Source: Eledone cirrhosa
Taxonomy: Eukaryota
DNA length: 64,000 nt
Reading direction: 5' to 3'
Assembly (NCBI GenBank): GCA_964016885.1
Contig: OZ024764.1
Location: forward strand, 17,174,001-17,238,000
In this document: positions 44,038 through 44,075 of the stretch, in pieces
How positions within the stretch are numbered: position 1 is the first letter of the stretch
Layout: each line of letters begins with the position of its first letter
The notes under the pieces: generated by a model
Database searches by the model: none
The model's input: the letters and a program-made list of their open reading frames with translations, nothing else
What the model was told of the DNA's origin: nothing
Position numbers and translations under genes: made by a program

Positions 44038-44075
44038 GCCCTGATGAGTCCTTAATAGGACGAAACATTGTCGGC
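44038..44075 (+). ncRNA. minimal type I hammerhead ribozyme motif within a Penelope-like pLTR remnant
   Basis: gcc-CTGATGA-gtcc(ttaata)ggac-GAAA-cattg-TC-ggc, followed by aataaaa. GUC cleavage triplet at 44070-72. Confidence 0.78.

Follow-up and report, generated by a model that had tools for sequence, protein, structure and literature searches.

The hammerhead ribozyme found at positions 44038-44075 of the window, i.e., of the whole stretch of 64,000 nucleotides from Eledone cirrhosa that was analysed, most probably belongs to a Hydra-clade Penelope-like element (PLE), namely to the 3'-terminal pseudo-LTR (pLTR) of a copy truncated on its 5' side. Most other hammerhead cores in the window are equivalent ends of related families, and such copies were likely written into (TA)n and are likely inert. 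We give this reading a probability of about 0.88. Hammerhead-bearing Hydra elements that target (TA)n are already known, one of them from octopus, and the identification as such is ordinary. Added here are a density of about 93 cores per Mb, stem III palindromes that shift in sequence, a hairpin in the tail, and about 7,000 fold-backs at the 5' edge of the ribozyme.

Read off the sequence, the successive parts of the ribozyme are GCC, CTGATGA, GTCC, TTAATA, GGAC, GAAA, CATTG, TC and GGC, exactly as in the sequence-only reading, which had called it a textbook hammerhead. Stem I pairs 44038-40 with 44073-75 and can be lengthened across a 1-nt bulge; stem II consists of 5 bp, and stem III of 2 bp with a 3-nt loop. 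The CUGANGA, GAAA and UH core is placed around three helices and is open at stem I, as in a minimal hammerhead of type I; stem III is palindromic. The ribozyme lies on the forward strand, and cleavage of its GUC site is predicted from the sequence to occur after C44072.

The window was searched with a strict descriptor, comprising the core, a stem I of at least 3 bp, a stem II of at least 3 bp with at most one mismatch, a stem III of at least 2 bp, and UH. Nine cores passed (10205+, 10186-, 30622+, 44041+, 56453-, 57111+, 57952-, 58050+ and 63056-), a density of 140 per Mb, which is typical of the smaller contigs of this genome. A further core, 30117-, passed only with a stem I of at least 2 bp. 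The window cores were sorted into six sequence families, designated A (44041), B (10205/10186), C (30622/56453), D (57952/58050/63056), E (57111) and F (30117). These represent only 8 insertion events, since each head-to-head pair is a single insertion; the arms of such pairs were identical over 78/78 nt and 102/104 nt. The sequence-only reading had counted about nine cores from at least four families. Nine strict cores and six families bear this out, but 10186- had been missed, and the core listed as 30111 is the borderline 30117-.

The family B insertion occupies 10035-10282, with cores 10205+ and 10186- head to head and the tail and its hairpin (10077-10097) on the minus arm. Family C is represented by a head-to-head insertion at 30509-30667, in which the core 30622+ is complete and the minus arm (30617-) has lost GAAA and stem III and bears the tail and hairpin (30557-30575), and by a diverged insertion on the minus strand at 56408-56543 (core 56453-) with an inverted tail arm. 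Two insertions belong to family D, one at 57856-58236 with cores 57952- and 58050+ head to head, and a variant with approximate ends at 62955 and 63298 (core 63056-), where a partial inverted arm bears the tail. Family E is a 3' end on the forward strand at 57102-57275, with the core at 57111, a tail hairpin at 57211-57231 and a tail related to that of family B; its stem III is damaged compared with the rest of its family. The family F core (30055-30122, minus strand) has, in the window copy, a substituted 5' strand in stem I and, judged from its sequence, is borderline and probably inactive.

The copy that contains 44041 extends over 43883-44225 on the forward strand, consists of a pLTR and a tail of about 100 nt, and is followed by (TA)n from 44226. 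It was 98-99% identical to the 39 other best-scoring genomic copies, and 339 of 344 nt were identical to the pLTR placed before an intact ORF at locus L028. Other family A copies reach further in the 5' direction and most of them terminate in (TA)n. Upstream of the element, the 200 nt at 43672-43882 had no match other than themselves among the loci compared. The 31-nt core of the family has 2,396 exact genomic copies, and the reversed control has none. One locus, L023, has the order pLTR-ORF-pLTR, the two ribozymes being separated by 5,125 nt and the frame broken once, and L028 has an intact frame of 896 aa counted from an ATG 230 nt past the cut site. In a search with the RT half, 28 of 98 scored matches, as counted by hand, were within open frames of at least 890 aa and stop-free in the match. 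The family A ribozyme was found just upstream in sense at 17 of 30 fetched ORF loci, and only an inverted copy at 6 more. The window copy is therefore a 5'-truncated end, and its family includes intact coding frames. Contigs from four sequencing runs of unknown kind, compared with 43672-44228, contained the family in one sample and as single contigs in two others, with no joints. In the contigs of one sample other than the present genome the cleavage triplet (window 44072) was mostly GUU instead of GUC, and the same was seen in older subfamilies of the present genome.

The identity of the ORF product as RT and GIY-YIG endonuclease (EN) is based on motifs, fold and atlas features, because the Pfam search gave no RT or GIY-YIG match and the PDB sequence search nothing significant. 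The model, built on an alignment of 79 sequences (mean pLDDT 82), had its best Foldseek matches in telomerase RT (TERT, E 8e-10), and YRDD is present at 359, as in telomerase-like RTs. The C-terminal part had atlas features of 0.95-0.96 to GIY-YIG clusters, and a VY...YIG motif was recognised by eye. The accessible passages of Craig et al. (2021, PMC8557442) list RW(K/R), DKT, CxCx5C, CxxC and CxH as diagnostic of the Hydra clade. The ORF has RWR at 37, DKT at 128, CxCx5C at 747, CxxC-E at 845 and N-CxH from 864, and DKG is absent. Among 120 homologs, RW(K/R) occurred in 101, DK(T/S) in 117 and ADKG in none. No internal CCHH motif was noticed in the EN region, which was inspected by eye. The partial pLTR tandems, inverted 5'-truncated copies and optional tail are those of PLEs, and the canonical hammerhead together with (TA)n insertion is that of Hydra elements. 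Judged by motifs, domain order, hammerhead and (TA)n target, the family A element is very probably a Hydra-clade PLE. The Naiad clade, which was our first idea, was dropped, as EN is C-terminal rather than N-terminal, the hammerhead is canonical and the motifs differ.

In 20 longer stretches that were fetched, family B was found on either side of a related ORF at L239 and L240 (units of 4.6 and 3.4 kb), as was family D at L253 (4.1 kb), and family C directly precedes a related ORF in L245. The linked ORF copies were mostly broken, with identities mostly of 30-55% in tblastn pieces. The sequence-only reading had described a dense and diverse population of PLE-type, (TA)n-favouring elements, and this description stands. 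It had also considered them non-autonomous and had noted that none has an adjacent RT ORF. The latter is true within the window, where the family ORF gave no tblastn match, but it fails for the families, since A, B, C and D each flank RT-GIY-YIG ORFs elsewhere in the genome and the window copies are 5'-truncated ends; for these four of the six families "non-autonomous" does not apply.

It could still be that many cores form self-propagating non-autonomous lineages, i.e., short retrozyme- or MITE-like RNAs or palindromes which borrow the PLE protein. We regard this as improbable overall; families C, E and F are the likeliest cases. Patterns of 27-31 nt from the 3' half of the ribozyme have exact genomic counts of 4,415 for B, 713 for D and 27,663 for C, with controls at 0. 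The high count of the family C 27-mer would suit such lineages, many family C copies being palindromes of 130-250 nt, and so would the recurrence of some junctions between loci. Among 15 loci of E and 15 of F there was no linked ORF; their tails, however, are 71-81% like that of the ORF-linked family B, and family C itself precedes an ORF. The derivation of retrozymes from pLTRs, given in the accessible part of a preprint (bioRxiv 10.64898/2026.07.22.740005), also speaks for this alternative, but 5' ends and fold-back junctions differ from copy to copy. In addition, arms were 96.8% alike within an insertion and 94.4% between insertions (15 pairs), as expected if each palindrome forms anew. Similarly to the non-LTR retrozymes in that part of the preprint, the window copies are short, non-coding and pLTR-related and have a type I hammerhead. 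Retrozymes, however, are head-to-tail tandem arrays, whereas the window copies are solo or head-to-head and variable at the 5' end. Retrozyme identity of the window copies was dropped, as none is head-to-tail and families A-D are ORF-linked. A further hammerhead family with a long loop 3 was seen in L023 (reverse strand, 7876 and 8341) and in L360, with head-to-tail units about 465 nt apart, and this family looks retrozyme-like.

The coding exons of FBXW8, the one multi-exon gene mapped in the window, run from 27827 to 16857 on the minus strand, with the best match (74%) to a protein of Octopus sinensis and no descriptor core inside. The last FBXW8 residues occur again at 16175-16755. An alpha-kinase ORF is located at 59381-60583 (+), and 4744-5049 (+) gave a weak SOUL haem-binding match. 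That 44041 or other window ribozymes were adopted by the host, or act on host transcripts, is very unlikely. The 44041 core is about 16 kb from the nearest mapped FBXW8 coding exon and 15 kb from the alpha-kinase ORF, and its copy is recent, because it is 98-99% identical to its family. The density of cores does place sense copies in many pre-mRNAs, and 14 myosin gene spans (472 kb) contained 13 sense and 15 antisense cores. These spans, 14 of 19 identified, were defined by collinear domain matches and not by transcripts. Solo cores alone numbered 7 in sense and 9 in antisense, a sense share with a 95% interval of 0.20-0.70, so that this low-power test gives no sign of sense depletion and rules out strong depletion only. 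An effect on host pre-mRNA, suggested from the sequence alone for sense copies in introns, found no support: FBXW8 encloses no core, and the myosin spans showed no bias at the given power. Since neither strand is favoured in the gene spans, most solo cores would seem to be silent.

The genomic load was estimated from a blind sample of forty 10-kb stretches at round coordinates, 399.8 kb in total. It contained 37 cores, i.e., 93 per Mb, compared with 0-2 in 20 shuffles. The four largest contigs had 5 cores in 160 kb and the other contigs 32 in 240 kb. (TA)4 or longer was found within 170 nt downstream of 34 of the 37 cores, and of 735 of 3,817 random points. With a genome size of 3.0 Gb, the load extrapolates to roughly 2 x 10^5 cores with a wide error, i.e., it is of the order of 10^5. 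Dinucleotide shuffles of the window in 500-nt blocks or in whole-window blocks (100 runs per setting) gave a mean of 0.06-0.07 cores and never more than 2. Chance matches in AT-rich repetitive DNA, to which the folding energies of several cores, no better than those of shuffles (z -2.5 to +0.7), might point, are ruled out by these shuffle controls (9 found in the window against at most 0.07 expected), by compensatory changes in stems I and III across families, and by the constant position of the cores within elements.

The load exceeds the published counts compared here, for which descriptors differ: the accessible passages of Cervera and de la Pena (2014, PMC4209133) give about 2,000-9,000 minimal hammerheads per genome (schistosome, coelacanth, Xenopus), and those of the retrozyme preprint a maximum of 14,255 arrays. 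A repeat annotation of O. vulgaris counts 336 active Penelope-like insertions, ribozymes being unmentioned in the passages available (PMC13282606). In the openly accessible literature on octopus hammerheads, the Hydra clade, octopus PLEs and their counts, no census was found.

The 3' ends were bimodal in all four families measured (A-D, 30 copies each). Distances from the pattern end to (TA)n clustered at 52 and 154 in family A, at 24 and 90 in B, at 33 and 123 in D, and at 6-22 and 84-92 in C. The two clusters correspond to the PLE tail, which the accessible text of Frangieh et al. (2024, PMC11167929) traces to two internal RT start sites. The tail of the 44041 copy has a bulged hairpin at 44132-44153 (forward strand; 4 bp, a 2-nt bulge and 3 bp), about 7 nt past the short 3' end (~44125), and by its sequence and position this hairpin is a candidate RT start signal, which can be tested in an existing in vitro assay. 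The same design, a 4-bp stem, a 2-nt bulge and a short upper stem, is common to families A-E with compensatory changes, and the hairpin lies about 6-7 nt beyond the short 3' end. It was present in 21 of 35 long-tailed cores of the blind and myosin samples and in 28 of 7,000 shuffled tails, an enrichment that is not independent, since the descriptor was derived from the same families. Only family A had another such hairpin at the long 3' end, in 1 of 5 full-length copies examined. No description of the tail hairpin was found in the openly accessible literature on pLTR stem-loops or fold-backs.

Head-to-head cores at most 20 nt apart occurred at 7,219 genomic sites, compared with 103 for the control. 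Among the first 50 of these tight sites, counted by hand, spacers of 3-8 nt were found at 33 and spacers below 3 nt at none. In the first 100 family C matches, 17 of 19 close pairs turn at the 5' edge of the ribozyme. Family A matches had no such clustering, and the fold-back hot spot is therefore family-specific. Just 5' of stem I, at the fold-back clusters, there is a pyrimidine-rich tract with CAG in family C and CAG in family B (e.g., L218, L220 and L031). The accessible passages of PMC4209133 place the 3' end of an intron at helix I in D. virilis Penelope. By its sequence, the CAG before stem I in families B and C may possibly be a splice acceptor. Read-through transcripts of the roughly 7,000 tight palindromes would form long double-stranded RNA, a possible substrate of A-to-I editing; RNA editing is extensive in coleoids.

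Copies with 5' ends within about 2 nt of the cut site were rare, 1 of 53 in family C and 2 of 67 in family D. Without a pile-up there, no genomic trace of in vivo cleavage is seen. This test is confounded by subfamily divergence upstream of the cut site; family A entered it with 1 incidental copy only, and 13 of 24 family B matches were E/F relatives. The scarcity of such ends fits uncut templates.

The stem III palindromes vary in sequence between families, and their self-complementarity is kept. With the pair imposed by the descriptor left out, 16 of 21 inner pairs were complementary in 11 types, compared with a shuffle mean of 7.6 and 1 of 20,000 shuffles as high, the types being not fully independent. 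Inner pairs of the 5- and 6-nt types are impossible within one hairpin loop, which supports selection for dimers. Stems I and III had compensatory changes across families, as mentioned above. The minimum-energy fold predicted for the 44041 monomer (-11.3 kcal/mol) differs from the hammerhead, for which a drawing limited to the 3-bp stem I gives -4.3 kcal/mol, and two copies together are likewise predicted to cofold into a structure other than the double hammerhead. The statement of the sequence-only reading that minimal PLE hammerheads cleave efficiently as dimers was too strong, according to the parts of the literature available to us. Their activity is low even as dimers (PMC4209133), the ribozyme of Poseidon PAc from Anolis cleaved only with protein and was dispensable for insertion (PMC11167929), a review grades the rates as very low (PMC6765202), and the role of PLE hammerheads is stated to be unclear (PMC8557442, PMC11167929).

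The following comparisons with known elements are based on the accessible passages of the cited papers. Hammerheads of the canonical type are a feature of Hydra elements, and nearly all of these elements target (TA)n; among them is Hydra-1_Obim from Octopus bimaculoides (PMC8557442). The elements described here have in common with this clade an RT followed by GIY-YIG in one ORF with RW(K/R), DKT, CxCx5C, CxxC and CxH, a type I hammerhead near the 3' end with a palindromic stem III, (TA)n insertion, partial tandems, and inverted 5'-truncated copies. In family C, stem II is closed by a U-U mismatch, as in the Hydra ribozymes listed in supplement S2 of that paper. Units are 3.4-5.1 kb here and "generally <3 kb" in the Hydra clade, and tails are 65-100 nt here and 30-40 nt there. 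The ORF of 896 aa, which includes a disordered insert of about 140 aa, the 3' UTR of about 2 kb and the very high copy number are further differences from the clade. Clear pLTRs are present here, whereas Hydra-1_Obim is listed without a pLTR; its ribozyme sequence differs from the present one, and the elements were set side by side by description. With the minimal PLE hammerheads of PMC4209133 the present ones share the occurrence of solo motifs by the thousand in several families, which that paper attributes to truncated PLEs, as well as pairs on opposite strands (100-700 bp apart in that paper) and a palindromic stem III suited to dimers. Unlike those, the cores here keep a stem III of 2-4 bp, and the load is of the order of 10^5 against about 2,000-9,000, with the different descriptors already noted. 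Two 3' ends with an optional tail and AT-rich targets are common with Poseidon PAc (PMC11167929), for which uncut RNA is given as the main template and RT starts in a stem-loop. PAc belongs to another clade than Hydra. Its ribozyme overlaps the start codon; in the present elements the ATG follows the cut site at a distance of 136-230 nt, and, unlike in PAc, the copies here end 6-7 nt before the conserved bulged hairpin.

On the preferred reading of 44041 as part of a truncated Hydra-clade copy, the RT and GIY-YIG endonuclease of the elements themselves likely wrote the window copies into (TA)n. From published PLE work, the endonuclease would nick (TA)n, and the RT would start internally on uncut RNA, at either of two sites beyond the ribozyme, and would mostly stop early, leaving 5'-truncated copies; the cDNA would often fold back and give an inverted arm. 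The bulged tail hairpin may position the RT start 6-7 nt upstream of itself. The palindromic stem III may be kept because the two ribozymes of a pLTR-ORF-pLTR transcript pair, and such a pair might cut slowly or with the help of protein, releasing unit-length RNA (5.1 kb for family A). The solo 44041 has no same-strand partner nearby, and read-through RNA of the head-to-head pairs would form one long hairpin that buries the ribozyme.

As a tentative extension, for which we see less than an even chance, the 3' end of Hydra-clade RNA may be a two-part module, in which the hairpin determines where the RT starts, 6-7 nt upstream of itself, and the hammerhead region, left uncut, marks where copying ends. 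Such an end could be the 5' end of the RNA, a stall caused by structure or, at stem I, a splice acceptor, and the thousands of snap-back palindromes would then follow from it. The ribozyme would be a protein-gated switch and not a constitutive cutter. If so, with its 10^5 or so cores and its young, intact ORFs this genome would be exceptionally well suited to studying what PLE hammerheads do. The young families, intact ORFs and many natural ribozyme variants are material for work on that function, and studies of the mechanism can make use of the load, the hairpin and the fold-back hot spot.

Some minor observations were made in the window. An Rfam scan gave 465 matches, and none of the best 150, dominated by microsatellite matches, was a hammerhead. 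Position 29525+ has the core words and a 4-bp stem I, with no closing stem II and no second copy among the fetched loci, and was not counted. At 12190-12315 on the minus strand (core at 12308) there is a further repeat family, absent from the motifs listed by the sequence-only reading, with CTGAGGA...GAAA, a perfectly palindromic stem III and a 2-bp stem II. It gave 24 blastn matches among the fetched loci, some in inverted pairs, and fails the strict descriptor. Window positions 1-1200 consist of a 95-nt tandem array, the unit having CTGATGA followed by a long hairpin, and upstream GGAAA with complementary short segments. This non-canonical motif might be a decayed or reordered hammerhead within a satellite. 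The output of the repeat finder was dominated by (TA)n and by a 65-nt satellite, which forms two arrays 40 kb apart, at about 5200-8000 and at 48690-50450.
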